This document shows, piece after piece, positions 8,815-34,115 of a stretch of DNA of 43,541 bases. Source of the DNA: an uncultured Bacilli bacterium. Lineage in GTDB: Bacteria; Bacillota_I; Bacilli_A; RF39; UBA660. Made by a program: the position numbers and the translations under genes. Numbering within the stretch: the first letter of the stretch is position 1; the number at the start of each line of letters is the position of its first letter. The notes under the pieces are model-generated. The model was not told the origin of the DNA, made no database searches, and saw nothing but the letters and a program-made list of their open reading frames with translations. The stretch covers positions 1 to 43,541 of the forward strand of contig CANQYF010000002.1 in NCBI GenBank assembly GCA_947628075.1, read 5' to 3'.

Positions 8815-10440
8815 TTATTGATTATCTAATTCACTTGGTAATAATACATTTCCAGTTCGACCGGCCTCTTTCAATCTTGCTTCAATCCAACTTCTATTTT
8901 CTTCGTCTTTTACTATGATTGTTATGCCATTTTTAACGTTTGAAAACATTCCACCATAAGATGTTACTTGGCTAAATTCGGCATTCCTCAAATCTAAATA
9001 TTCTAATGAACTCATTCCACAAAACATATTCGCCATAATGGTTACTTTTCTAGTATCAAAACTGGATAAGTCCAATTCTTTTATTTGACTAAGATCTCTA
9101 AACATGCTGTTCATGTTTGTAACATTACCAGTGTAAAAGCTACTTACATCTAATTCTGTAAGTGAACTCATGCCGTGAAACATACTACCCATTATTGTTA
9201 CTTTCATCGTATTAAAATTTGACACATCTAATTTGGTTACTCTACTTAAACCAGAAAACATACCATACGCAGTTGTTACTTTCTTGGTATTAAAATTCGA
9301 TACATCAAATTCGCTACCTCTAATACCAAGTCCAAATTCACTAAAATTATCTATAGTCGCGGTGTCTAATTTACTAACATCTAATTTGTCCAAACTTGCC
9401 GAGCCAACAAAACATCGCCATACATTACTATTTAAATCACTATAAAAATTGCCAAATACAATATTTTCTAAATTGGATAGCCAAGAAAAAAAATAGCTAA
9501 TATTTAATGAATATATTCTATCTTTGCTTCCTATATATAAATCATAATATTGTTCTTCTTCATCTGTCTCTTTTGAAATTTCTTCTAACCAACCTATAAT
9601 GCTTCCTGCTGGCGATTGATTTTTACCAGTTCCAACGTTTGTTAAATCCCAAGTTTTAATCACTGATTCGGTATTTATATAATCAACAAAATAAATATTT
9701 TTAATATATTGTGCCCATTCTTCACTTCTAAAAGCACCGTATTGATTATTATATCCAGTACTAACTAAATAAACTGCTCTTTCACCAGTTAATTCACATT
9801 TTAAATCTGTAGTATCTATATCTATATTGATATCTTTTCCTGATATATAACTTTGGTCTGTTTCTTTATTTGTTAACTCTATATATGTTTCTATACTTTT
9901 ACTATTATTTCCTACTATATCTAAACTGATTGGTATTGTTGTTTTGCCATTTGTGTTTTGAAGTGTTGATAAATCAATAACTTTGTGATTTGTTCCCCAT
10001 CTTAGGAATACTTTTAAATCGTCTTGCTCTAATACTGGTAATATACTATTAACTCCATTATCAACAGTAATTGTAACATTCGCTGTACATCTATAAATAT
10101 TATCGTCTTTTTTTGAGTTAGTTAGTGTAATTACTCCTATATCATGAAATCCTTCACTTTTGGTTTTAACATAATTATCTTCGTCGTCAGCATAGATTGT
10201 TCCTAAATTATCTAAGCTCATAGCAGAACCATCAACATTTAAATTTAATTTAGTAGTTGGATTTTGAATACTGGCAATAGCTACTCCCTCTGTACTTCCT
10301 GTTACTACTGTTTTATTATAATTATTTGAGTTTACTTCCACAGCAAAATAAGCATATGATGCCCCAACAAGTAATATTAACAAGAATAATATTCCTATTA
10401 TTAATTTTATATCGATTATTTTCTTCTTTTCTCTTGCCAT
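8815..10440 (-). CDS. BspA-family leucine-rich-repeat surface protein (DUF285 / 26-residue surface repeat type)
   Basis: The 541 aa ORF has an N-terminal TM/signal segment. The C-terminal half carries about 25-26 residue repeats of the form LDVSNFNTxKVTxMxxMFxGxSxLxxLD, at least five copies by eye. Confidence 0.8.
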   Translation of the reverse strand: MAREKKKIIDIKLIIGILFLLILLVGASYAYFAVEVNSNNYNKTVVTGSTEGVAIASIQNPTTKLNLNVDGSAMSLDNLGTIYADDEDNYVKTKSEGFHDIGVITLTNSKKDDNIYRCTANVTITVDNGVNSILPVLEQDDLKVFLRWGTNHKVIDLSTLQNTNGKTTIPISLDIVGNNSKSIETYIELTNKETDQSYISGKDINIDIDTTDLKCELTGERAVYLVSTGYNNQYGAFRSEEWAQYIKNIYFVDYINTESVIKTWDLTNVGTGKNQSPAGSIIGWLEEISKETDEEEQYYDLYIGSKDRIYSLNISYFFSWLSNLENIVFGNFYSDLNSNVWRCFVGSASLDKLDVSKLDTATIDNFSEFGLGIRGSEFDVSNFNTKKVTTAYGMFSGLSRVTKLDVSNFNTMKVTIMGSMFHGMSSLTELDVSSFYTGNVTNMNSMFRDLSQIKELDLSSFDTRKVTIMANMFCGMSSLEYLDLRNAEFSQVTSYGGMFSNVKNGITIIVKDEENRSWIEARLKEAGRTGNVLLPSELDNQ

Positions 10441-11551: not shown

Positions 11552-12599
11552 CTGCTAACTTTAAACGCATATCTTCTGTAATTAAAGCTTCAATTATGGG
11601 AGATAGATGTCCATCCATTACTTTGTCTAATTCCATTATAGAAAAATTAATTCGATGATCTGTTACTCTATTTTGAGGATAATTATAAGTTCTTATTTTT
11701 TCAGAACGATCTCCCGTTCCTATTTTAGTTTTTCTTTCTACCCCTAATTCTTGTTCTTGTTTTTGTTTCATAGCATCATGTAATTTAATTCTAAGTAATC
11801 GCATGGCATTTTCTTTATTTTTAAGTTGACTTCTTTCGGTTTGACAAGACACCACTACACCAGTAGGAACATGAGTAATACGAACTGCTGAATTAGATGT
11901 ATTTACTGATTGGCCTCCCGCTCCACTAGAATGAAAAACATCAATCTTTAAATCACTTTCTTTAATATCTATATCTACATCTTCTACTTCTGGCATAACT
12001 AAAACAGTAGCAGTTGAGGTATGAACTCTACCTTGAGTTTCCGTTGCGGGAATTCTTTGAACACGATGAGATCCACTTTCATATTTTAATTTAGAATAAA
12101 CATTATCCCCTTTAACCATATATTCAATTTGTGCATATCCACCAGATGTTCCCTCAATTGAATTTAAAACTTCGATTTTCCAGCCATTTTCAATGGCATA
12201 ATAAGAATACATTCTAAATAAATCCCCAGCAAAAATATTAGCTTCGTCTCCTCCGGCTGCTCCTCGTATTTCCATTATAACGTTTTTGCCATCGTTTTCA
12301 TCTTTGGGAACTAAAAGTTGTTTTAATGTGCTTTCTAAATCTTCAATTTTATTAGTTAAATTTTCAACTTCTTGCATAGCCATTTCCTTAAATTCAGGAT
12401 CGTTAACTAAGCTTTCAGCTTCTTCTTTAGCATTTTTTGCTTCTTTATATTCATTATATTTATTTACTATTTCTTCTAAATCACTATGTTCTTTTGAAAG
12501 TTTTTTTAATTTATTATAATCATTTAATACTTCTGGTTTTTGTAATTCAATTTTTAATTCTTCATATTTTTTTTGAATATTTTCTAATCTTTCAATCAT
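11529..12599 (-). CDS. prfA: Peptide chain release factor 1
   Basis: The 356 aa ORF has the PAT tripeptide (RIPATETQGR) and the GGQ motif (SGAGGQSVNT). Confidence 0.97.
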   Translation of the reverse strand: MIERLENIQKKYEELKIELQKPEVLNDYNKLKKLSKEHSDLEEIVNKYNEYKEAKNAKEEAESLVNDPEFKEMAMQEVENLTNKIEDLESTLKQLLVPKDENDGKNVIMEIRGAAGGDEANIFAGDLFRMYSYYAIENGWKIEVLNSIEGTSGGYAQIEYMVKGDNVYSKLKYESGSHRVQRIPATETQGRVHTSTATVLVMPEVEDVDIDIKESDLKIDVFHSSGAGGQSVNTSNSAVRITHVPTGVVVSCQTERSQLKNKENAMRLLRIKLHDAMKQKQEQELGVERKTKIGTGDRSEKIRTYNYPQNRVTDHRINFSIMELDKVMDGHLSPIIEALITEDMRLKLAGDNLEIR

Positions 12600-12658
12600 A
12601 ATATCACCCGTTTTCTCCCTAAGATTATACCATTTTACCTATTACTATGCAATAAAAG

Positions 12659-13531
12659 TTACTTTTTTGGAACTATATGAATATTACAATGTTTAATAAA
12701 TGCAAATTGTTTTTCTAAATTATCATGAATATATAAAACTACTTCATTAGCATCATCTAACTTCATATTGCCATCAATAGCAAGTTCCGTATCAATATAT
12801 ACTTTACTACCGAACATTCTTGTTTTAAATTCATTAATTACGACATTTTTATTTAAACTTTTAATAAAATCCTTAATTTTTTCATTAACTTCTTCATCAC
12901 AAGATTTATCAACCATTTGATTAATAGATGTCGCAAATATATCTAAAGCTGATTTAACAATTAAAATAGCAATAAGAATACTACATAATGGATCTAAAAC
13001 AGTTAAGCCTAATCTAGCTCCTAAAATACCAATAAAAGATCCAATGGAAGAAAATGCATCACTACGATGATGCCAAGCATCAGCTTTCATAGATGGCGAA
13101 TTTAACTTCTTAGCGGCCCACATAGTATAATGATACATTCCTTCTTTAATAATTATAGATATTACCGCCGCTACTAAGGCAAATCTACCTGGTATTTTTA
13201 AAAGAGTACTACTCATTATATTATTAATGCCTATATAACCTATCCCAATACCTGTTAAAAATAACATAAAGGAAAGGATAACAGCCATAACTGATTCTAT
13301 ACGTTCATGACCATATGGATGCGATTCATCTGCATCTTTAGAAGCATAAAATAAACCAAATATTACCGCAAAAGTACTTACAACATCTGATAAAGAATGA
13401 AATGCATCAGATATAATGGCATGCGAATGAGCAATAATACCGGCAATTAATTTAAAAGCAAATAAAAAGAAATTAATTAACACAGTAATTATTGACACTT
13501 TAATTCCCAAATTATTTAAATTCTTTTTCAT
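12659..13531 (-). CDS. Cation diffusion facilitator (CDF) family metal efflux transporter
   Basis: The probable start is ATG 13531 (MKKNLNNLGIK...). It has six TM segments, the metal-site motifs HAIISDAFHSLSD and HHRSDAFSS, and a C-terminal cytoplasmic domain. Confidence 0.85.
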   Translation of the reverse strand: MKKNLNNLGIKVSIITVLINFFLFAFKLIAGIIAHSHAIISDAFHSLSDVVSTFAVIFGLFYASKDADESHPYGHERIESVMAVILSFMLFLTGIGIGYIGINNIMSSTLLKIPGRFALVAAVISIIIKEGMYHYTMWAAKKLNSPSMKADAWHHRSDAFSSIGSFIGILGARLGLTVLDPLCSILIAILIVKSALDIFATSINQMVDKSCDEEVNEKIKDFIKSLNKNVVINEFKTRMFGSKVYIDTELAIDGNMKLDDANEVVLYIHDNLEKQFAFIKHCNIHIVPKK

Positions 13532-13608
13532 ATCACATCTTTCTTTCTGTCTAAAAAAGTGAAACATATTGTCTCACATTTATTTTTTTTTAATTATATT
13601 TTTTTTGA

Positions 13609-14043
13609 TTATTCGGCACTAATTTCATCTTCATCAACAATAACTAAATCTTTTAAATCATCATCGTCATCGTCGTCACTATCTATATCATTATCGTAAT
13701 ATATATCTTCTTCCTCGTCGGTATCTTCAATTTCTTCTTCCTCTATTTCTTCGTTATCTAAATTTTCTTCTTCATCTTCAATAACTATATCTAAAGAATG
13801 ATTAGTAGCTAAATCCCAATAACCATTTTCCAGTAAAACAAATTTTTTATTAGTAGATAATAATTCAAAAAAGTCTCCAATTCGCTCTTCTACTGTCTCA
13901 TCAGGAAGATCTAATGCTTTACAAACCTTTTGAAATAAATCAATTATTTTCATTTTCTTGCCATTTTTTTCTAAAATTAAATAAGCAATTTCATCATAAC
14001 CCATTGTTTCTAATTCTTCTTTTGGTATATCTTTTAAATTCAT
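13609..14043 (-). CDS. rpoE: RNA polymerase delta subunit
   Basis: The N-terminal HARE-HTH-like domain reads EELETMGYDEIAYLILEKNGKKMKIIDLF...FVLLENGYWDL. A long D/E tail follows. SD GAGGAG is present. Confidence 0.85.
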   Translation of the reverse strand: MNLKDIPKEELETMGYDEIAYLILEKNGKKMKIIDLFQKVCKALDLPDETVEERIGDFFELLSTNKKFVLLENGYWDLATNHSLDIVIEDEEENLDNEEIEEEEIEDTDEEEDIYYDNDIDSDDDDDDDLKDLVIVDEDEISAE

Positions 14044-16469: not shown

Positions 16470-16483
16470 ATTTATTCTTCTTT
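16458..16483. repeat. Perfect 26-bp palindrome spanning both convergent stop codons (probable bidirectional terminator)
   Basis: AAAGAAGAATAAA|TTTATTCTTCTTT. Both the PBP and the ParB-like protein therefore end in ...KEE*. Confidence 0.8.
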
Positions 16484-17545
16484 ATTAATTGTAACAATAT
16501 ATTTTACTTCTTTGTCAGTTTCTTCTTTTACTACATTAGTTGTATAATTATTATTTTTTAAATTTGTTTCTAAATTATTTAATAAATCTTCAGCTATCGC
16601 CATGTCTTTGATTTTAATAATACTTTCCCCTGGAGCAACAAAATCCAACAACTCAATTTCATTATTATCATTTAATGGAGTTTTTTCTTCTATGGTTAAT
16701 TCAGGAGCACTTGGTGTTTCCAAAGAGTTCATATTAACTTTTTCATCCTCTAAATAATTAAAAAATTTATTTGGAATTATGGTATTATTATTTTCATTAG
16801 TATTAATTATGTTTTCTTCCTCTACTTTTGCTGGTGGAATAATATCTGTTGCTGTTTCTTTAATTACATTAATATCTGGGTTTAATTCAATAATTGGAGT
16901 TTCTTGTTCTTCCACTTTTTCACCCACTTTACCCTCTTTTAATCTTCTATCTAATTCTTTAACTGTTATTCTTTCATCAATAATAGTTTTTAACCATTTA
17001 TTTTGTTCTTCCGTGTCTTCTAATTGTAATAAGCTTCTCGCATGTCTTTCTGATATTTTACCTTCCATTAAAGCATTTTGAACATCTTCAGATAATTGTA
17101 ATAGACGTAGTTTATTAGATATAGCTGATTGACTTAATCCCATCTTTTTAGCTAATTCTTCTTGTGTTAAATATCCTTTATCTAATAAAGCTTTATATGA
17201 TTTAGCTTCCTCAATTGCCGATAAATCTCTTCTTTGAATATTTTCCACGATTGCTACTTCGGCACTTTTTTTATCATCCATTGCCGTTATAATTGCCGGC
17301 ACACTCATTAGTCCTGCCATTTTTGAAGCTTTATATCTTCTTTCACCTGCAACTATTTCATATTTGTCACCAAGGCGTCTTAAAATAAGGGGTTGAATAA
17401 TCCCATGTTCTTTAATAGAAGATGCTAATTCTTTTAGTGAAGATTCTTCAAAATTAAGCCTAGGTTGAAAACGATTAGGAATTATATCTTCAATTGGTAT
17501 ATTAATAACTTGTCCACCTACGCCAGATGTATTCACTATAATCAT
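16472..17545 (-). CDS. noc: ParB/Noc-family CTP-dependent DNA-binding protein, Noc-like
   Basis: It has PNRFQPR, the GERR box (IVAGERRYKAS), and an HTH region LSQSAISNKLRLLQLSEDVQNALMEGKISERHARSLL that resembles Noc more than Spo0J. It lies directly downstream of rsmG, the noc position in Bacillus. A long N/E-rich insert precedes the C-terminal end. Confidence 0.7.
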   Translation of the reverse strand: MIIVNTSGVGGQVINIPIEDIIPNRFQPRLNFEESSLKELASSIKEHGIIQPLILRRLGDKYEIVAGERRYKASKMAGLMSVPAIITAMDDKKSAEVAIVENIQRRDLSAIEEAKSYKALLDKGYLTQEELAKKMGLSQSAISNKLRLLQLSEDVQNALMEGKISERHARSLLQLEDTEEQNKWLKTIIDERITVKELDRRLKEGKVGEKVEEQETPIIELNPDINVIKETATDIIPPAKVEEENIINTNENNNTIIPNKFFNYLEDEKVNMNSLETPSAPELTIEEKTPLNDNNEIELLDFVAPGESIIKIKDMAIAEDLLNNLETNLKNNNYTTNVVKEETDKEVKYIVTINKEE

Positions 17546-23533: not shown

Positions 23534-23558
23534 ATTAGTTAAAAAAACACGTAAGAAA

Positions 23559-23681
23559 TTACTTTGTTAATTCCTTACGACCTTTTCTACGACGATTATT
23601 AATTATCTTTGTTCCTTTTCTAGCAAAGAAACCATGCTTTTTAGCTTTTTTTCGATTGTTTGGTTGATAAGTTCTTTTCAT
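23559..23681 (-). CDS. rpmH: 50S ribosomal protein L34 (short, 40 aa)
   Basis: It is too short for the ORF track. My reverse translation reads [51 protein letters not shown] is present. Confidence 0.9.
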
Positions 23682-23715
23682 AATGATTCCACCTCTTTCT
23701 TCAGTAAGCGCTATT

Positions 23716-23745
23716 ATTATAATATTATTATATTAGAAATGTCAA
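23716..23745 (-). promoter_or_regulatory. Promoter for rpmH-rnpA
   Basis: The minus strand reads TTGACA (23740-23745), 18 nt, TATAAT (23716-23721). Confidence 0.55.
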
Positions 23746-23788
23746 GAAATAACATATCTAACAATAATTAACAAAACATTAAAAATTT

Positions 23789-24038
23789 TTATCAACATTC
23801 AAAATATGACAAAATTTGTATTTTTAATATTTAAATAACTTTATTTTAACAAAAGTCAAGACTTGAAATTTCCTTAATGTAAAGTATAAATTTAAGTTTT
23901 CAACACTTTCAACATTTGAAAAAGCTTAACTCAATTGTTTAAAAGTTTAAAAGTTGACAAAAAAATGTTGAAAATGTTAATAACCTAATGTAACATAGAT
24001 ATTACCTAGAAAATTTATGTTGAAAATTATGTTAATAA
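23789..24038. promoter_or_regulatory. oriC: oriC part 1: DnaA-box cluster upstream of dnaA
   Basis: These 9-mers are within 1-2 mismatches of TTATCCACA. Forward orientation: TTATCAACA 23789-23797, TTTTCAACA 23897-23905, CTTTCAACA 23906-23914. Inverted orientation: TGTTGAAAA 23966-23974, TGTTAATAA 23975-23983, TGTTGAAAA 24018-24026, TGTTAATAA 24030-24038. The cluster is at the rpmH/dnaA divergence, where gene-strand bias switches. Confidence 0.8.
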
Positions 24039-24059
24039 AAACATATAAATAAATTTTTC

Positions 24060-24089
24060 TTGTAATAAAAATTCATTTAATGGTACAAT
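24060..24089 (+). promoter_or_regulatory. dnaA promoter
   Basis: TTGTAA (24060-24065), 18 nt, TACAAT (24084-24089), with an upstream TG (extended -10). Confidence 0.5.
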
Positions 24090-24130
24090 TATTTTGGGAT
24101 ATTTATGATTGTGGGGTGAGGTAATAACAC

Positions 24131-26776: not shown

Positions 26777-26792
26777 TATTTCCCGGGAAATA
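26777..26792. other. Noc-binding-site (NBS) type palindrome
   Basis: TATTTCCCGGGAAATA is a perfect 16-bp palindrome containing the 14-bp ATTTCCCGGGAAAT. A half-site-like TTATTTCC follows at 26803-26810. Confidence 0.6.
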
Positions 26793-26848: not shown

Positions 26849-27301
26849 ATGTCAGAATTTATTATTAATGAAGAAACAGTTGCTTTAAGAAAGGATGAAA
26901 ATAAAACAATAATATATAATGTTGATAACTGTTTAGTTATTAACAAAAATTTAAAAAATATATTAAATACAAATTGTTTATATTATGGAAGTGATTTAAA
27001 CGGAAGAAGACGGAGTGCACAGAGATTATTAAATATGAAATATAAAGTGCCTATAATTATTTCAGATATCAACAATTATATTTTAATTTCCATTGGATCA
27101 TTAAGAGATAATAATTGTTTGTTAATTATGCTTAACAAAATCATAGATTATGAAGAAAAAGATAATTATTTAAAAATAATTTGTGCTTTTAATCAAGAAT
27201 TTGTGGTCAATATTTCTAAATATAGCTTTGAAAAATTATTAATTAATGCAATTAAATTAAATAACTTATTAAAATGGCGAAAAAATGTAAATAATGTTTA
27301 A
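26849..27301 (+). CDS. ComK-family-like protein (tentative)
   Basis: The 150 aa ORF reads ...CLYYGSDLNGRRRSAQRLLNMKYKVPIIIS...NYILISIGSLRDNNC... This parallels B. subtilis ComK, FFGSSYAGRKAG...KISHKPPIMVD...IFLFPTLSSTRPQC, as I recall it. SD AGGAGGG is present. Confidence 0.45.
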   Translation: MSEFIINEETVALRKDENKTIIYNVDNCLVINKNLKNILNTNCLYYGSDLNGRRRSAQRLLNMKYKVPIIISDINNYILISIGSLRDNNCLLIMLNKIIDYEEKDNYLKIICAFNQEFVVNISKYSFEKLLINAIKLNNLLKWRKNVNNV

Positions 27302-30415: not shown

Positions 30416-32863
30416 ATGAATCAAGAAAAAGATAAGTTAATAGAAAATAATATAGTAAAAGAAATAAAAGATTCATTTATTGATTATTCAGTTAGTGTTA
30501 TTATGTCAAGAGCAGTTCCTGATTTACGTGATGGTTTAAAACCTGTTCATAGAAGAATTTTATGGTCAATGTACGAATCTGGTTATACACCAGATAAACC
30601 ACATCGTAAAAGTGCACGTATTGTCGGGGATGTCATGGGAAAATATCATCCACATGGTGATTCAAGTATTTACGATGCAATGGTAAGACTCGCTCAAGAT
30701 TTTAATTTTACTCATACATTAGTTGATGGTCACGGTAACTTTGGTAATATTTCTATTCCAAGACCAGCTGCGTCACGTTATACGGAAGCAAGACTTGCAA
30801 AGATATCTTTAGAATTATTAAGAGATATTAATAAAGAAACCGTTAATTTTTTACCTAACTTTGATGAATCAGAAAAAGAGCCAGAAGTTTTACCATCTAG
30901 ATTTCCTAATATTTTAGTAAGCGGAACAATGGGTATTGCTGTAGGTATGGCAACTAATATTCCTCCCCATAATTTAGGAGAAGTTATTGATGGATGTGTT
31001 GCATATATCGATAATCCTGAAATTGATATCAACGGATTAATGCAATATATAAAAGGCCCCGATTTTCCTACTGGTGGCGTGATTTTAGGCAATAGTGGAA
31101 TAAAAAAAGCATATGAAACAGGAAGAGGAACAATTACAATTAGAAGTAAAGCCACAATTGAAGAAAAAAATGGCAAAAATTATATAATTATTGATGAAGT
31201 CCCTTATGGTGTAAATATTACTGATTTAAAAGAAAAAGTAGCTGAGCTTGTTCATAATAAAATAATTGATGGAATTGCAGATTATCATACTGATTTAAAA
31301 GATGGTTTAAAGATAACTATTACATTAAAGAAAGAAGCAAATGCTCAAGTTGTCCTTAATAATCTATTTAAACATACACAATTTCAAACTAGCTATGGTA
31401 TTATTTTCTTAATGATTGATAATAAAGTTCCAAGAACTTTAGGTTTAAAAGATATTATTTCTAAATATATTAATTATCAAGAAGAAGTAATTATTAGAAG
31501 AACAAAATTTGATTTAGATCGTGCTGAAAAAAGGGTACATATTTTAGAAGGGTATAAAATTGCCTTAGATAATCTTGACGATTTTATAAAAATTATTAGA
31601 GAATCGGAAACAGATGTTATAGCTAAAGAAACTTTAATTCAAAAATATGCTTTAAGTGATGTTCAAGCTGATGCAATTTTAGAATTAAAATTACGTCGTT
31701 TGACTGGTCTAGAAAGAGCCAAAATTGAAGAAGAATTAAAAGATTTATTAGCTAAAATAGAAGAATATAAGGAAATTTTAGCATCTCGTGAAAAAATTCT
31801 AAATATTATTAAGAATGAACTTTTAGAAATAAAAGAAAAATATGCTGTGGAACGTCGTACTAAAATTGATATGACCGCTATTGAATATATCGAAGATGAA
31901 TCATTAATCCCAGAGGAAGACATAATGGTTGTTTTAACTAATAAAGGTTATATTAAACGTACTACTAATGACACCTTTAAAGTTCAAAATAGGGGTGGAA
32001 TTGGTGTAAAAGGATTAACTACTAATGATGAAGATTATGTTGAAAATTTAATTAATTTATCAACTCATGATTATATAATGTTCTTTACAAATAAAGGAAA
32101 AGTTTATCGTTTGAAAGGATATGAAATACCAGAATTTAGTCGTCAATCTAAAGGAATACCAGTTGTTAATTTGTTAAATATTGAAAAAGATGAAAAAATA
32201 AATTCAATTATTCGTATTAATAAAAACGAAGAATATAAATATTTATTGTTTGCAACTAAGAAAGGAATTGTTAAAAAGACTAATATATCCGAGTTTGAAA
32301 ATATTAGAGCAACTGGAAAAATATGTATTAATTTGAATGACAATGATGAATTGTTAGATGTTAAAAAGACAACTGGCGAAAGTCTTGTCTTGATAGGTAG
32401 TAGTGCTGGTCGGATGGTTAAATTTGATGAATCAGAAATTAGAGCTATGGGAAGAACTGCTACTGGTGTTAAAGGAATTAATTTAGATGGGGGCACTTGT
32501 ATTTGTTTAGAAGTTGTTCAAGAAGATTCAGTAATTGTTTTGGTAACTGAGAAAGGTTACGGTAAACGTACAAATGTTTGTGATTTTAGAAAAACAAAAC
32601 GTGGAAGTAAAGGCGTTTTAGCCTTAAATGTTACTGAAAAGAATGGTAATTTAGTCGCAGCAAAATTAGTAGAAGAAAATAAAGATTTAATGATAATGAC
32701 TAATGTGGGAATTACTATTAAATTACCAATAGATCAAATTTCTATTTTAGGTAGAGTGACTCAAGGACTTAGATTAATTTCCTTACGTGAAAATCAAACG
32801 GTTGCCACTGTCAGTGTGGTTGATAAAACAAGTGAAGAAGAAGTTACCGGACAAATTGATTAA
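30416..32863 (+). CDS. gyrA: DNA gyrase subunit A
   Basis: The 815 aa ORF has AVPDLRDGLKPVHRR, the active-site region RYTEARL, and C-terminal beta-pinwheel repeats. Confidence 0.98.
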   Translation: MNQEKDKLIENNIVKEIKDSFIDYSVSVIMSRAVPDLRDGLKPVHRRILWSMYESGYTPDKPHRKSARIVGDVMGKYHPHGDSSIYDAMVRLAQDFNFTHTLVDGHGNFGNISIPRPAASRYTEARLAKISLELLRDINKETVNFLPNFDESEKEPEVLPSRFPNILVSGTMGIAVGMATNIPPHNLGEVIDGCVAYIDNPEIDINGLMQYIKGPDFPTGGVILGNSGIKKAYETGRGTITIRSKATIEEKNGKNYIIIDEVPYGVNITDLKEKVAELVHNKIIDGIADYHTDLKDGLKITITLKKEANAQVVLNNLFKHTQFQTSYGIIFLMIDNKVPRTLGLKDIISKYINYQEEVIIRRTKFDLDRAEKRVHILEGYKIALDNLDDFIKIIRESETDVIAKETLIQKYALSDVQADAILELKLRRLTGLERAKIEEELKDLLAKIEEYKEILASREKILNIIKNELLEIKEKYAVERRTKIDMTAIEYIEDESLIPEEDIMVVLTNKGYIKRTTNDTFKVQNRGGIGVKGLTTNDEDYVENLINLSTHDYIMFFTNKGKVYRLKGYEIPEFSRQSKGIPVVNLLNIEKDEKINSIIRINKNEEYKYLLFATKKGIVKKTNISEFENIRATGKICINLNDNDELLDVKKTTGESLVLIGSSAGRMVKFDESEIRAMGRTATGVKGINLDGGTCICLEVVQEDSVIVLVTEKGYGKRTNVCDFRKTKRGSKGVLALNVTEKNGNLVAAKLVEENKDLMIMTNVGITIKLPIDQISILGRVTQGLRLISLRENQTVATVSVVDKTSEEEVTGQID

Positions 32864-32864
32864 A

Positions 32865-32884
32865 AATATTTCCCGGGAAATATT
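32865..32884. other. NBS-type palindrome (NBS-1)
   Basis: AATATTTCCC|GGGAAATATT is a perfect 20-bp palindrome that starts 2 nt after the gyrA stop codon. Confidence 0.65.
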
Positions 32885-32910
32885 ATCAATGTTTCACGTG
32901 AAACATTGAT
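32885..32910. other. parS: parS site (parS-1)
   Basis: ATCAATGTTTCAC|GTGAAACATTGAT is a perfect 26-bp palindrome. The core TGTTTCACGTGAAACA matches the Firmicutes parS consensus TGTTNCACGTGAAACA at every defined position. Confidence 0.8.
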
Positions 32911-32930
32911 AAAGACTTTTTATAATTAAT

Positions 32931-32968
32931 AAGCATAACTTAAATTTTAGGTTATGCTTTTATTATTC
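32931..32968 (+). terminator. Rho-independent terminator of gyrA
   Basis: AAGCATAAC (32931-32939), an 11-nt loop, then GTTATGCTT (32951-32959), followed by TTATTATT. Confidence 0.7.
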
Positions 32969-33236
32969 TGTGCATTCAGTAAAATATAAATAGCTATAAT
33001 GAATGTATATAAGTAATGTTTTATATAATTAATAATTTATATTTCAAGGCCCTTGTTAATTATTATAAACATGAGTTTTTAAAAAATAGTAATTATAATA
33101 GTTGTTTAATGTTATATAAATAATATTTATAATGATTTAATTTTAAATTGATCATTAATTAGTTATTAATAATTTATATTTATTGTTTGAATATTGTAAT
33201 ACAGAATCAATTTTATTAATTGTATATTAATTGCCT

Positions 33237-33258
33237 TAATGTTTCACGTGAAACATTA
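33237..33258. other. parS: parS site (parS-2)
   Basis: TAATGTTTCAC|GTGAAACATTA is a perfect 22-bp palindrome. Confidence 0.8.
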
Positions 33259-33260
33259 GC

Positions 33261-33284
33261 AAATTATTTCCCGGGAAATAATTT
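33261..33284. other. NBS-type palindrome (NBS-2)
   Basis: AAATTATTTCCC|GGGAAATAATTT is a perfect 24-bp palindrome. Confidence 0.65.
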
Positions 33285-33333
33285 AAGTAAAAAAAAATAG
33301 TTAATAGATGAATTTTATTAAATCACATTTTTT

Positions 33334-33369
33334 AATTATTCAATGTTTCACGTGAAACATTGAATAATT
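33334..33369. other. parS: parS site (parS-3), the longest palindrome
   Basis: AATTATTCAATGTTTCAC|GTGAAACATTGAATAATT is a perfect 36-bp palindrome. It has no adjacent NBS. Confidence 0.8.
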
Positions 33370-33529
33370 GTAATTAATAACGTTATTTTTTTGTGATGCT
33401 ATTTTTTTAAAATTATTAAACAAATTTTTAAATTATAAACAAATCATTAAGTTAAAATAAGTATTTTATTATTTTAGTAAAATATGATAAAGTTTCGAAA
33501 ATTTAAGTTTTAAGTTTAAAAAGCTACTA

Positions 33530-33551
33530 TAATGTTTCACGTGAAACATTA
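33530..33551. other. parS: parS site (parS-4)
   Basis: TAATGTTTCAC|GTGAAACATTA is a perfect 22-bp palindrome. Confidence 0.8.
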
Positions 33552-33576
33552 AAAATATTTCCCGGGAAATATTTTT
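33551..33576. other. NBS-type palindrome (NBS-3)
   Basis: AAAAATATTTCCC|GGGAAATATTTTT is a perfect 26-bp palindrome. It ends 8 nt before the -35 of the ffs promoter. Confidence 0.65.
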
Positions 33577-33613: not shown

Positions 33614-33618
33614 GACTT

Positions 33619-33692
33619 TGCACAACAAATATAGCGTAAACTGGTCAGGGTTGGAAAACAGCAGCCAAATCGTTTCCTATTTGTGTGTGCTT
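33619..33692 (+). ncRNA. ffs: Small (4.5S-type) signal recognition particle RNA
   Basis: It contains ACTGGTCAGGGTTGGAAAACAGCAGCCAAA, matching the conserved SRP domain IV (GGUCAGGUCCGGAAGGAAGCAGCCAA). The 5' GCACAACAAATA pairs with the 3' TATTTGTGTGTGC to form one long hairpin, followed by a T-run. The position upstream of tadA and dnaX matches scr in Bacillus. The ends are approximate. Confidence 0.8.
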
Positions 33693-33710
33693 TTTTATTA
33701 GGTGATAAAT

Positions 33711-34115
33711 ATGAAAGACTTTATGACATTAGCGTTTGAAGAATCAATAAAAGCAAATAAAAAAAATGAAATACCGGTTGGGGCTATTATTGTAAGAAAC
33801 AATAAAGTGATTTCAAAATCTCATAATAATCGTCAAAAAAAATATAATGTTTTAGGTCATGCAGAAATTAATGCAATATTAAAAGCTGAAAAAAAAATAA
33901 AAGATTGGCGTTTAGATGATTGCGATTTATATGTTACTTTAGAACCATGTGATATGTGTATAAGCATTATTAAAGAATCAAGAATTAAAAATGTATACTA
34001 TTTAGCAAAGAATACAAACAAAAGTTCTATAGGTGATGGCCAATTGTATGATAATATTGATTTAAAAGAAAAATATGAACAATTGCTTAAAAATTATTTT
34101 AAAAAGATGCGTTGA
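33711..34115 (+). CDS. tadA: tRNA-specific adenosine(34) deaminase
   Basis: The start is ATG 33711, after GGTGAT. It has the CDA zinc motifs HAEINA and PCDMC. The track ORF starts at GTG 33702. Confidence 0.9.
   Translation: MKDFMTLAFEESIKANKKNEIPVGAIIVRNNKVISKSHNNRQKKYNVLGHAEINAILKAEKKIKDWRLDDCDLYVTLEPCDMCISIIKESRIKNVYYLAKNTNKSSIGDGQLYDNIDLKEKYEQLLKNYFKKMR

Follow-up and report, generated by a model that had tools for sequence, protein, structure and literature searches.

Between gyrA and the small SRP RNA gene (ffs), this uncultured Bacilli bacterium carries two classes of 16-bp palindrome, parS and the Noc-binding site (NBS), interleaved close to the presumed oriC. The question raised by this locus is which proteins load there and whether the pairing of their sites has a function. 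The pair of ParB and Noc is the textbook example of a duplicated DNA-binding protein with switched site specificity. The NBS is defined by its difference from parS at positions 1 and 6 of the half-site (PMC7383237). In B. subtilis, Spo0J and Noc cooperate on DNA near the origin and time Z-ring assembly (Hajduk et al. 2019, PMC6852036). The searched literature describes the two sites in separate places, with parS close to oriC and NBS dispersed around the chromosome. The features discussed here are collected in Table 1; the window is the whole stretch of 43,541 nucleotides (43.5 kb) that was analysed.

Table 1. Features of the window that bear on the array (window coordinates; a dot marks a feature given without strand)
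Feature	Position	Strand	Remarks
ParB-family gene, Noc-like, 357 aa	16472..17545	-	directly downstream of rsmG
Presumed oriC: rnpA-dnaA intergenic region	23534..24130	.	GC skew changes sign
Solitary perfect NBS	26777..26792	.	dnaN-comK gap, ~57 bp upstream of comK start
gyrA	30416..32863	+	conserved left flank of the array
NBS 1 (TATTTCCCGGGAAATA)	32867..32882	.	4 bp past gyrA stop codon; in 20-bp palindrome
parS 1	32883..32912 (core 32890-32905)	.	30-bp perfect palindrome; centre 23 bp from NBS 1
Likely main gyrA terminator	32931..32959	+	hairpin then T-run
parS 2	33240..33255	.	in 22-bp palindrome
NBS 2	33265..33280	.	in 24-bp palindrome; centre 25 bp from parS 2
parS 3	33334..33369 (core 33344-33359)	.	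unpaired; 36-bp perfect palindrome
parS 4	33533..33548	.	in 22-bp palindrome
NBS 3	33556..33571	.	26-bp palindrome; centre 23 bp from parS 4
Small SRP RNA gene (ffs)	33614..33696	+	right flank of the array
tadA	33702-34115		after ffs

Four exact copies of the parS 16-mer TGTTTCACGTGAAACA and three of the NBS 16-mer TATTTCCCGGGAAATA lie in the gyrA-ffs gap. An earlier note on this DNA had placed these seven sites correctly and had named them as canonical parS and NBS, which holds: the 16-bp palindrome TGTTNCACGTGAAACA, used as the test for parS, is matched by four exact copies, and ATTTCCCGGGAAAT, the test for NBS, by four exact 16-mers in the window. The three NBS listed there stand, and a fourth perfect copy, upstream of comK, had been missed. 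This position is also filled in five relatives (L120, L121, L124, L125, and L126). By chance, 0.03 copies of TGTTTCACGTGAAACA and 0.01 copies of TATTTCCCGGGAAATA are expected in the window. No further match to TGTTTCACGTGAAACA was found elsewhere in the 43.5 kb, even with two mismatches, so parS is confined there to one gap and only NBS has an additional copy outside it.

With N for NBS and P for parS, the order of sites is N-P, P-N, P, P-N. The three tight pairs reported earlier, with their order and spacing, were recovered, as were the palindrome lengths (22 to 36 bp for parS, 20 to 26 bp for NBS) and the lone parS 3 as the longest. Paired sites are separated edge to edge by 7 to 9 bp. The outer two dyads form an inverted repeat of 46 nucleotides that is 96% complementary, in which parS 4 and NBS 3 mirror NBS 1 and parS 1. 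NBS 3 ends approximately 40 bp upstream of ffs. The gap is 750 bp in length with a GC content of 0.20, and its ORFs are trivial, none exceeding 40 aa, in agreement with the AT-rich, ORF-free stretch described before. The origin-proximal position also stands. The presumed oriC, marked by the rnpA/dnaA divergence and the GC-skew switch at about 23.5-24.1 kb, lies approximately 8.7 kb from the array, and the individual sites are 8.7 to 9.4 kb (about 9 kb overall) from the dnaA start and the skew switch. The array was also considered as a second oriC module, which is unsupported: DnaA boxes are not enriched in it, and none lies inside the gyrA-ffs gap. The only Rfam matches in the window are the SRP RNA and an L10 leader; the array is therefore not a known RNA.

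A pattern scan found parS/NBS pairs in no fewer than 119 species-level genomes, almost all of them from uncultured low-GC Bacilli of the gut or rumen. The pair locus is adjoined by gyrA in 102 of the 119 and by tadA in 94. At the 79 loci with both flanks, the gyrA-tadA gap has a median length of 659 bp and holds 88% of the parS and 71% of the NBS. NBS are over 10 times denser inside the gap than outside, and the excess holds after the dyad by which each locus was found is discarded. The spacers between sites cannot be aligned even at 81-90% GyrA identity and the 16-mers stay perfect, including in one relative that carries an inserted mobile element. Judged from these sequences, strong selection acts on the parS and NBS 16-mers, and their co-clustering is conserved throughout the clade; it is not a scattered REP element. 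Dyads measure 46 bp and tandem units 60-85 bp; the dyad units are amplified in tandem in several species (for example L009, L044, and L062), and some relatives carry 8-17 parS in tandem units. Solitary NBS occur in the flanks of relatives, upstream of comK and inside genes (15 in dnaX and five in yabB). The NBS is thus not confined to intergenic DNA, and the solitary copies at dnaX and comK fit what is expected of a working Noc-type system. No parS was found in approximately 80 kb around noc in relatives.

The two site classes are kept apart. Related sequence totalling 939 kb holds 276 perfect parS and 289 perfect NBS (more than 560 sites) and just three sites in which a single half-site is hybrid. 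Position 5 of parS varies between T and C, whereas the matching position of the NBS is invariant and the NBS is almost without variants. The flanks also differ, with A at position -1 in 98% of parS and A-tracts beside NBS. This lack of mixing, together with the different tolerated variation and the different flanks, argues for two distinct readers.

The spacing between the paired sites is less uniform than the window suggests. Clade-wide, NBS-parS distances range from 16 to about 60 bp, are never less than 16 bp, and have modes at about 26, 36, 48, and 57 bp. A period of approximately 11 bp is present in these distances (periodogram power 14.4, reached by none of 2000 simulations), although the sampled species share ancestry and the statistic therefore overstates their independence. 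No such period was found in the parS-parS distances. In the closest relatives of the window, the distance within the first dyad ranges from 23 to 104 bp. In a sample of four loci picked by GyrA homology, tight pairing is clear in two, loose in one, and missing in one. One relative, L126, has NBS-parS distances of 82-104 bp, and another, L127, has 17 parS and a single NBS 224 bp away. Tight pairing is frequent, not universal. The fixed spacing proposed in the earlier note is ruled out, since distances differ even between close relatives, and just the phasing of approximately 11 bp survives.

The only ParB-family gene in the window is the one linked to rsmG, and this rsmG-noc synteny is kept in relatives. 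Both the ParB_N and HTH_ParB Pfam domains were found in the encoded paralogue, which has the CTP motif GERRYKA, where the Noc pattern is GERRxRA. Its specificity residues are Q-K-Q-R (Q173, K179, Q184, R201), and all 120 homologues carry Q173, K179, and R201 (Q-K-x-R). Position 184, a lysine in Noc, is occupied by Q in the window protein and by S, T, or A in relatives, so that three of the four Noc residues are kept. In the work of Jalal 2020, Q173 reads A1 and R201 reads C6, both require a permissive lysine at 179 and/or 184, a single such lysine suffices for DNA binding, and Q173/K179/R201 form the NBS-specific class. In deep mutational scanning, parS binders always have R173, and dual-specificity variants mostly have T or S at 201. 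From these residues, the paralogue is predicted to be NBS-specific and should not read parS.

In other respects the protein is not a typical Noc. The Noc membrane helix is an N-terminal amphipathic segment of approximately 10 aa followed by helix alpha2 (PMC8429893). No such helix was found in the window protein or its relatives, where 7-14 residues without a hydrophobic face precede the ParB N domain; residues 1-10 are disordered in the AF2 model of the paralogue. The best-scoring family is still NCBIfam TIGR04285 (nucleoid_noc), at 276 bits and under the 315-bit cut-off. The N-terminal domain scores nearly equally against Thermus Spo0J and against Noc. The C-terminal linker of the window protein carries the conserved motifs IPNKFFNYLEDE and EIELLDF; the linker is 100 aa in length and disordered, with conserved motifs of the forms FFNFLEDE and EIEMLDF.

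A second ParB paralogue, which the earlier note had suggested looking for together with soj, did not appear. No canonical ParB gene, with the parS-type specificity residues R173 and G201, was found in the 43.5-kb window or, by tblastn, in approximately 1.1 Mb of origin-proximal sequence of relatives, the only exception among the loci being L031, an unrelated Oscillospiraceae locus. None was found within 10 kb either side of the Noc-like and GyrA homologues, and soj-spo0J does not follow noc as it usually does. A metagenome scan with an AT-rich codon pattern for GKSR...N.LRLL returned mostly marine ParBs and none that could be tied to the clade. The most promising gut group from these searches proved to be Thomasclavelia/Coprobacillaceae. 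A Coprobacillaceae ParB compared with 1.84 billion representative proteins, with look-ups by name and context, reached Amedibacillus, Spiroplasma, Mycoplasma, rsmG-parA-parB loci of Mollicutes type, and one phage- or plasmid-like contig, none of which could be tied to the clade. The related Coprobacillaceae and Mollicutes have retained a canonical ParB, which in some cases stands alone and at a distance from rsmG.

The gyrA-ffs gap is probably this lineage's centromere, composite in build, at which two paralogous CTP clamps are loaded. The four parS would load a canonical ParB clamp, whose gene would have to lie outside the window, and the three interleaved NBS would load the Noc-type paralogue. 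Each clamp would nucleate on its own 16-bp palindrome in a CTP-dependent manner and then slide. With loading sites 7-9 bp apart, both proteins would share the same DNA of approximately 0.7 kb, and a mixed or tightly abutting nucleoprotein complex would form next to oriC. Such a complex may couple the ParB functions of origin segregation and SMC loading to Noc-type contacts, for which the membrane, the division machinery, and the replication machinery are candidates. The interleaved arrangement suggests that ParB and the Noc-type protein work side by side. A further reading, possible but doubtful, is that the paralogue now serves as a dedicated partner of ParB at the centromere and is no longer a nucleoid-occlusion membrane tether, with clamps that touch or form a hybrid partition complex. 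Its loading beside parS would then be helically phased and stereospecific, and the origin would be tied to the membrane, pole, or division machinery through the linker motifs IPNKFFNFLEDE and EIEMLDF, a link that would functionally replace the missing ParA/Soj.

The composite centromere was weighed against four other explanations. The NBS-bound protein might fence ParB in, instead of cooperating with it, by keeping sliding ParB clamps out of gyrA and the ffs promoter or by making ParB spreading one-directional. Such a roadblock would suit the window, where the outermost site on both sides is an NBS and the outer dyads are mirror images, and its subclade (GyrA at least 81% identical), where 10 of 10 arrays begin N-P beside the gyrA stop and seven of the 10 have N as their last site; with 7-9 bp from edge to edge, paired sites also probably leave a clamp too little room to pass. 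It is nonetheless unlikely. In all 80 arrays that contain both site types taken together, the first site is an NBS in 34 (28 expected) and the last in 16 (28 expected), so the idea that NBS always bracket the parS cluster fails clade-wide and is true only of the subclade. Many arrays strictly alternate (NPNPNP) or hold the NBS between two parS (PNP), and Noc-type clamps themselves quit their site once CTP is bound (PMC8429893). Alternatively, the rsmG-linked paralogue might be the sole family member in the genome and read both palindromes, as in the single promiscuous ParB/Noc protein offered as an option in the earlier note. The failure to find a second ParB-family gene in the window or the origin-proximal loci of relatives, the absence of soj-spo0J after noc, and the even scores of the N-terminal domain all speak for this reading. 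They are set against the invariant Q173 and R201 of the homologues, which match neither the parS binders nor most dual-specificity variants, the near absence of hybrid half-sites, the separate variation and flank preferences of the two classes, and the canonical ParB retained by Coprobacillaceae and Mollicutes. Dual specificity is accordingly disfavoured and rated improbable.

Co-location without coupling is also improbable. On this view both site types gather independently in the largest AT-rich non-coding gap close to oriC, and lying side by side serves no function. It would account for the wide variation in spacing and the loss of pairing in L126 and L127, and the gap is indeed the main non-coding stretch of a compact origin region. 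However, NBS are tolerated inside dnaX and yabB, their excess in the gap survives removal of the discovery dyad, the phasing is specific to NBS-parS pairs, and repeated amplification of PN units has taken place. That the sites are generic REP/MITE-like repeats or mere terminator hairpins is very improbable and already largely refuted. The palindromes do extend past 16 bp, the parS 1 palindrome scores as a terminator-like hairpin, and the first parS after gyrA is terminator-like in 27% of species as opposed to 10% of other parS. Most sites, however, have no T-run. The cores are exact matches to two known ParB-family sites, the flanks show a consensus and not repeat-element homology, and copies beyond the array are limited to one NBS in the 43.5 kb, with no parS around noc in relatives. 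All parS and three of the four NBS of the window share one gap, and parS is concentrated in the syntenic gap clade-wide. The earlier note was therefore right to set these sites apart from generic repeats, with pairing conserved in at least 119 species-level genomes and the 16-mers, not the spacers, retained.

The array can be compared with two known systems. Like the chromosomal parS clusters of B. subtilis, Caulobacter, Corynebacterium, and Myxococcus, it has several copies of TGTTNCACGTGAAACA within approximately 1 kb and a few kb from oriC, which by homology would be loading sites for the CTP-dependent ParB clamp. Unlike those clusters, it interleaves parS at 23-25 bp with another class of palindrome, for a paralogous clamp, occupies a fixed syntenic gyrA-ffs position in more than 100 species, and has no adjacent parB and soj; some relatives also reach 8-17 tandem parS. 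With the Noc-NBS system of B. subtilis and S. aureus it shares the identical 16-bp site tATTTCCCGGGAAATa, a paralogue directly after rsmG that has Q, K, and R as specificity residues and GERR as its CTP motif, and extra NBS dispersed in origin-proximal genes. It differs in that the paralogue is without the membrane-targeting amphipathic helix and K184, falls under the family cut-off, and has the long disordered linker, and in that most local NBS are paired with parS and not scattered. The Spo0J-Noc cooperation in B. subtilis is genetic, whereas here the sites themselves are physically paired, and no link of that cooperation to juxtaposed sites was found in the searched literature. The composite array is a variation on the known parS and Noc-NBS systems, and the pairing appears undescribed in the searched literature, as the earlier note had supposed.

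Loading sites a few bp apart, in helical register, at one locus, and across a large clade imply a direct functional interplay of two paralogous CTP clamps, which may take the form of cooperation, mutual blocking, or mixed complexes. Because the sites are kept paired at one locus, the array is a natural compact substrate for in vitro tests, as 46-bp dyads or 60-85-bp tandem units. It could be used to study how sliding clamps that differ in specificity encounter each other, what role a Noc-type protein has without its membrane helix, and how origins are segregated in organisms apparently without soj next to noc. The array also identifies the predicted centromere of an abundant, uncultured group of gut and rumen Bacilli.

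The gap between gyrA and the SRP RNA gene (ffs) contains four exact copies of the parS 16-mer and three of the Noc-binding site (NBS) 16-mer. All seven lie where the earlier note had placed them; a fourth NBS, upstream of comK, had been overlooked. No other TGTTTCACGTGAAACA is present in the 43,541-bp window with two mismatches allowed, and the chance expectation for the window is 0.03 for TGTTTCACGTGAAACA and 0.01 for TATTTCCCGGGAAATA. The three dyads (neighbouring parS and NBS pairs) measure 23, 25, and 23 bp centre to centre. These distances, the long perfect palindromes around the sites (22–36 bp for parS, 20–26 bp for NBS), and the AT-rich spacers (20% GC over the array stretch, all ORFs 40 aa or shorter) agree with the earlier reading. 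The first dyad mirrors the last, and together they form a 46-nucleotide inverted repeat that is 96% complementary. Comparison of the array stretch with Rfam matched no family.

Coordinates of sites and genes in the window
Feature	Position	Strand	Description	Enclosing perfect palindrome
parS TGTTTCACGTGAAACA	32890		exact 16-mer match	30 bp
parS TGTTTCACGTGAAACA	33240		exact 16-mer match	22 bp
parS TGTTTCACGTGAAACA	33344		exact 16-mer match	36 bp
parS TGTTTCACGTGAAACA	33533		exact 16-mer match	22 bp
NBS TATTTCCCGGGAAATA	32867		exact 16-mer match	20 bp
NBS TATTTCCCGGGAAATA	33265		exact 16-mer match	24 bp
NBS TATTTCCCGGGAAATA	33556		exact 16-mer match	26 bp
NBS TATTTCCCGGGAAATA, fourth copy	26777-26792		exact 16-mer match, upstream of comK	
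First parS after gyrA, with arms	32883-32912			
ParB-family gene	16472-17545	minus	357 aa; noc position after rsmG; sole family member in the window	
comK homologue	26849-27301		between dnaN and recF	
DUF285/LRR protein	8815-10440		541 aa; DUF285 ('Mycoplasma protein') and LRR repeats	

The window is the origin region of a firmicute of roughly 27% GC and resembles that of Bacillus. The left arm reads rpsG/rpsL ... rplJ/rplL ... prmC, prfA ... PBP1, the ParB-like gene, rsmG, mnmG, mnmE, jag, yidC, and rnpA. The right arm reads dnaA, dnaN, comK, recF, gyrB, gyrA, the array, SRP RNA, tadA, dnaX, ybaB, recR, holB ... pth, mfd, and spoVT. The GC skew changes sign in the rnpA/dnaA gap, which places the array approximately 9 kb into the right replichore and upholds its proposed position next to oriC. 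DnaA boxes are not enriched, and none occurs inside the array. The DUF285/LRR protein is consistent with a lineage near Mollicutes and Erysipelotrichia. Sporulation genes are represented by spoVT in the window and by spoIIR and bofA in relatives.

The solitary NBS lies approximately 57–80 bp 5’ of the comK start, over the likely promoter. At least five relatives have an NBS at the matching position (L120:772, L121:773, L124:6358, L125:6361, and L126:6357), and another, L122, has none there. The site may be an ordinary NBS or may feed into the regulation of comK. The placement of comK within the core origin gene block is kept in all relatives examined and is an unusual site for a competence regulator.

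One genome per GTDB species was scanned for parS followed by an NBS core within 0–30 bp, which gave at least 119 stretches. Among the matches listed, the carriers are nearly all uncultured low-GC Bacilli, 'Erysipelotrichaceae', 'Tenericutes', or 'Mollicutes' MAGs from guts and rumens, including Clostridium sp. CAG:417, CAG:710, CAG:1000, Candidatus Scybalousia, and Onthousia; no named Bacillus, Staphylococcus, or Listeria genome is among them. In these listed matches gyrA is present in 102 and tadA in 94 of the 119 loci. In the 79 listed loci with both flanks, the gyrA-tadA gap has a median length of 659 bp and holds 317 of 362 parS and 163 of 228 NBS. Around noc, no parS was found in roughly 80 kb from four relatives.

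The spacers cannot be aligned even at 81–90% GyrA identity, while the 16-mers remain perfect. Related sequence totalling 939 kb contains 276 perfect copies of TGTTTCACGTGAAACA, 289 of TATTTCCCGGGAAATA, and only three hybrid sites, each with a single hybrid half-site. In the same sequence, position 5 is T or C in parS and invariant in NBS. In both site types the consensus continues into the flanks, as (C)AA-TGTT...AACA-TT(G) around parS and as A-tracts around NBS, and this accounts for the length of the palindromes; perfect symmetry runs past the core by a mean of 3.0 bp at parS and 2.6 bp at NBS, compared with 0.48 bp at control centres. These sequence comparisons argue for strong selection and for two separate readers of parS and NBS.

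The fixed dyad spacing that the earlier note had supposed is not supported. In the nearest relatives of the window the first dyad measures 23, 30, 31, 33, 35, 35, 36, 39, 50, and 104 bp. Four loci were picked by GyrA homology, not by dyads. In L124 the order is NPPN (N, NBS; P, parS), the pairs being 35 and 25 bp apart, and L125 has NNPNPN with 31 and 36 bp. In L126 both site types are present 82–104 bp apart, and L127 (GCA_977041565.1) has 17 parS and a single NBS 224 bp off. From these GyrA-chosen loci it follows that co-location of parS and NBS in the gyrA-tadA gap is general, and that tight pairing is frequent and not obligatory. The L127 locus (12520-13962; GyrA 75% identical) is a parS-only expansion of the gyrA-ffs locus in approximately 1.5 kb, with higher-order repeats of roughly 400 bp and its NBS at the ffs end.

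NBS-parS centre distances have a minimum of 16 bp and cluster at approximately 25–27, 35–37, 47–49, and 56–57 bp. Their periodogram peaks near 11 bp with a power of 14.4, reached by none of 2000 simulations drawn from a smoothed histogram, in a sample of species related by descent, each locus of which was recruited through one dyad within 44 bp. No period near 11 bp appears in parS-parS distances in the same analysis. The peaks fall near half-integer helical turns, which would put the two dimers on helix faces roughly opposite each other.

Among the site orders are NPPN, PNP, and strict alternation over long arrays built of 62–84-bp tandem units. In the subclade of the window, 10 of 10 arrays begin N-P and 7 of 10 finish in N; NBS at both ends is typical of this subclade, not of the clade overall. 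Strictly alternating tandem arrays of 6–11 units with periods of 62–84 bp occur at loci L009, L044, L062, L006, L034, L043, and L092, with longer, irregular dyad spacing (approximately 170–330 bp) in L044. Such arrays are amplified versions of the dyad and would be compact natural substrates for in vitro work. In the close relative L030, an ORF resembling an IS200/IS605-type Y1 transposase, its family assigned by reading the sequence and not by profile search, lies mid-array at approximately 250–730 of the oriented gyrA-tadA gap, flanked by repeats; the parS and NBS around it are intact.

In many cases the first parS after gyrA (in the window, L110, L107, L030, and others) has lengthened arms with a T-run behind them, and therefore looks like the intrinsic terminator of gyrA. 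Terminator-like form is found in 27% of first parS and 10% of other parS. The site appears to serve as both centromere site and terminator hairpin.

The ParB-family gene is the only one in the window, and neither soj nor spo0J was found there. Among proteins of solved structure, its product is closest to Noc of Geobacillus and B. subtilis, and Thermus Spo0J ranks only slightly lower. Its recognition region is GLSQSAISNKLRLLQL...ISERHARSL. At the four specificity positions of Jalal et al. 2020 (173, 179, 184, and 201), where ParB has RTAG and Noc QKKR, it carries Q-K-Q-R, and Q-K-[S/T/A/Q/N]-R is found in 120 of its 120 closest database homologues. In that study, Q173 reads adenine 1 and R201 cytosine 6 of NBS, at least one permissive lysine is needed at 179 or 184, R173 is always kept in parS binders, and position 201 is mostly T or S in dual-specificity variants. 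By these rules the protein is predicted to bind NBS, not parS.

This protein differs from Noc, with which it shares the position after rsmG, in two respects. The ParB N domain begins after only 7–14 residues, so the protein lacks the feature that defines Noc function, an N-terminal amphipathic membrane helix (PMC8429893), and the NCBIfam TIGR04285 score is 276 bits, below the cut-off of 315. A disordered linker of approximately 100 residues contains two nearly invariant motifs in otherwise variable sequence, IPNKFFNFLEDE (a predicted short amphipathic helix, residues ~257–272) and EIEMLDF (~296–302), and is followed by a C-terminal domain of dimerisation type, predicted with confidence. IPNKFFNFLEDE bears a loose resemblance to RFFGLGE, a part of the membrane peptide at the N-terminus of B. 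subtilis Noc. It may be a motif for binding the membrane or a partner that has changed its place in the protein.

Searches of related loci by tblastn returned no ParB, save on one unrelated Oscillospiraceae contig. Metagenomes scanned with an AT-rich codon pattern yielded many ParBs. A gut-derived stand-alone group belongs to Thomasclavelia/Coprobacillaceae, and further representatives to Amedibacillus, Spiroplasma, Mycoplasma, Mollicutes-type rsmG-parA-parB loci, and a phage/plasmid-like contig. A canonical ParB of the array-bearing clade was not found by tblastn of related loci, the metagenome scan, or database representatives. Neighbouring lineages are shown to retain a canonical ParB, which in some cases stands alone and apart from rsmG; this is no proof for the array-bearing clade. 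We infer that one exists there, because canonical parS is perfectly conserved and the encoded paralogue is predicted to bind NBS only.

Two ENA contigs (L250 and L251; 120 kb and 65 kb) carry a canonical ParB 56% identical to that of Coprobacillaceae, in phage- or plasmid-like surroundings (RtcB, RNase H, NAD-ligase, primase, and numerous small ORFs); of the two, one derives from the same sample series as an array-bearing MAG (BRZ_PC). At a Mollicutes-type rsmG-parA-parB locus (L254, GCA_014238055.1), the table 11 translation of the called parB differs from the database protein. Some neighbouring lineages recode UGA, and the mismatch probably reflects genetic code 4.

That the sites are repeats or terminator hairpins is scarcely credible; a REP-like element is ruled out by gap-confined synteny, perfect 16-mers amid unalignable spacers, few hybrids, and the differing variation of the two sites. 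A single dual-specificity protein reading both sites is quite unlikely, given an encoded paralogue with predicted affinity for NBS alone. Co-location of parS and NBS without coupling is held to be just as improbable. A role of NBS as a roadblock or boundary is unlikely.

The best-supported reading, which we consider probable, is a composite centromere next to oriC, on which paralogous CTP clamps of ParB type and Noc type would be loaded side by side. Cooperation has a genetic precedent in B. subtilis, where Spo0J and Noc jointly time Z-ring assembly (PMC6852036). Jalal et al. 2020 describe parS as confined to the surroundings of oriC and NBS as spread widely over the genome, whereas here three NBS are juxtaposed with parS in one gap. 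The literature searched contained no description of juxtaposed or interleaved parS and NBS. The elements of the array are known; their arrangement is real and conserved, appears to be undescribed, and goes together with an atypical Noc-type protein.
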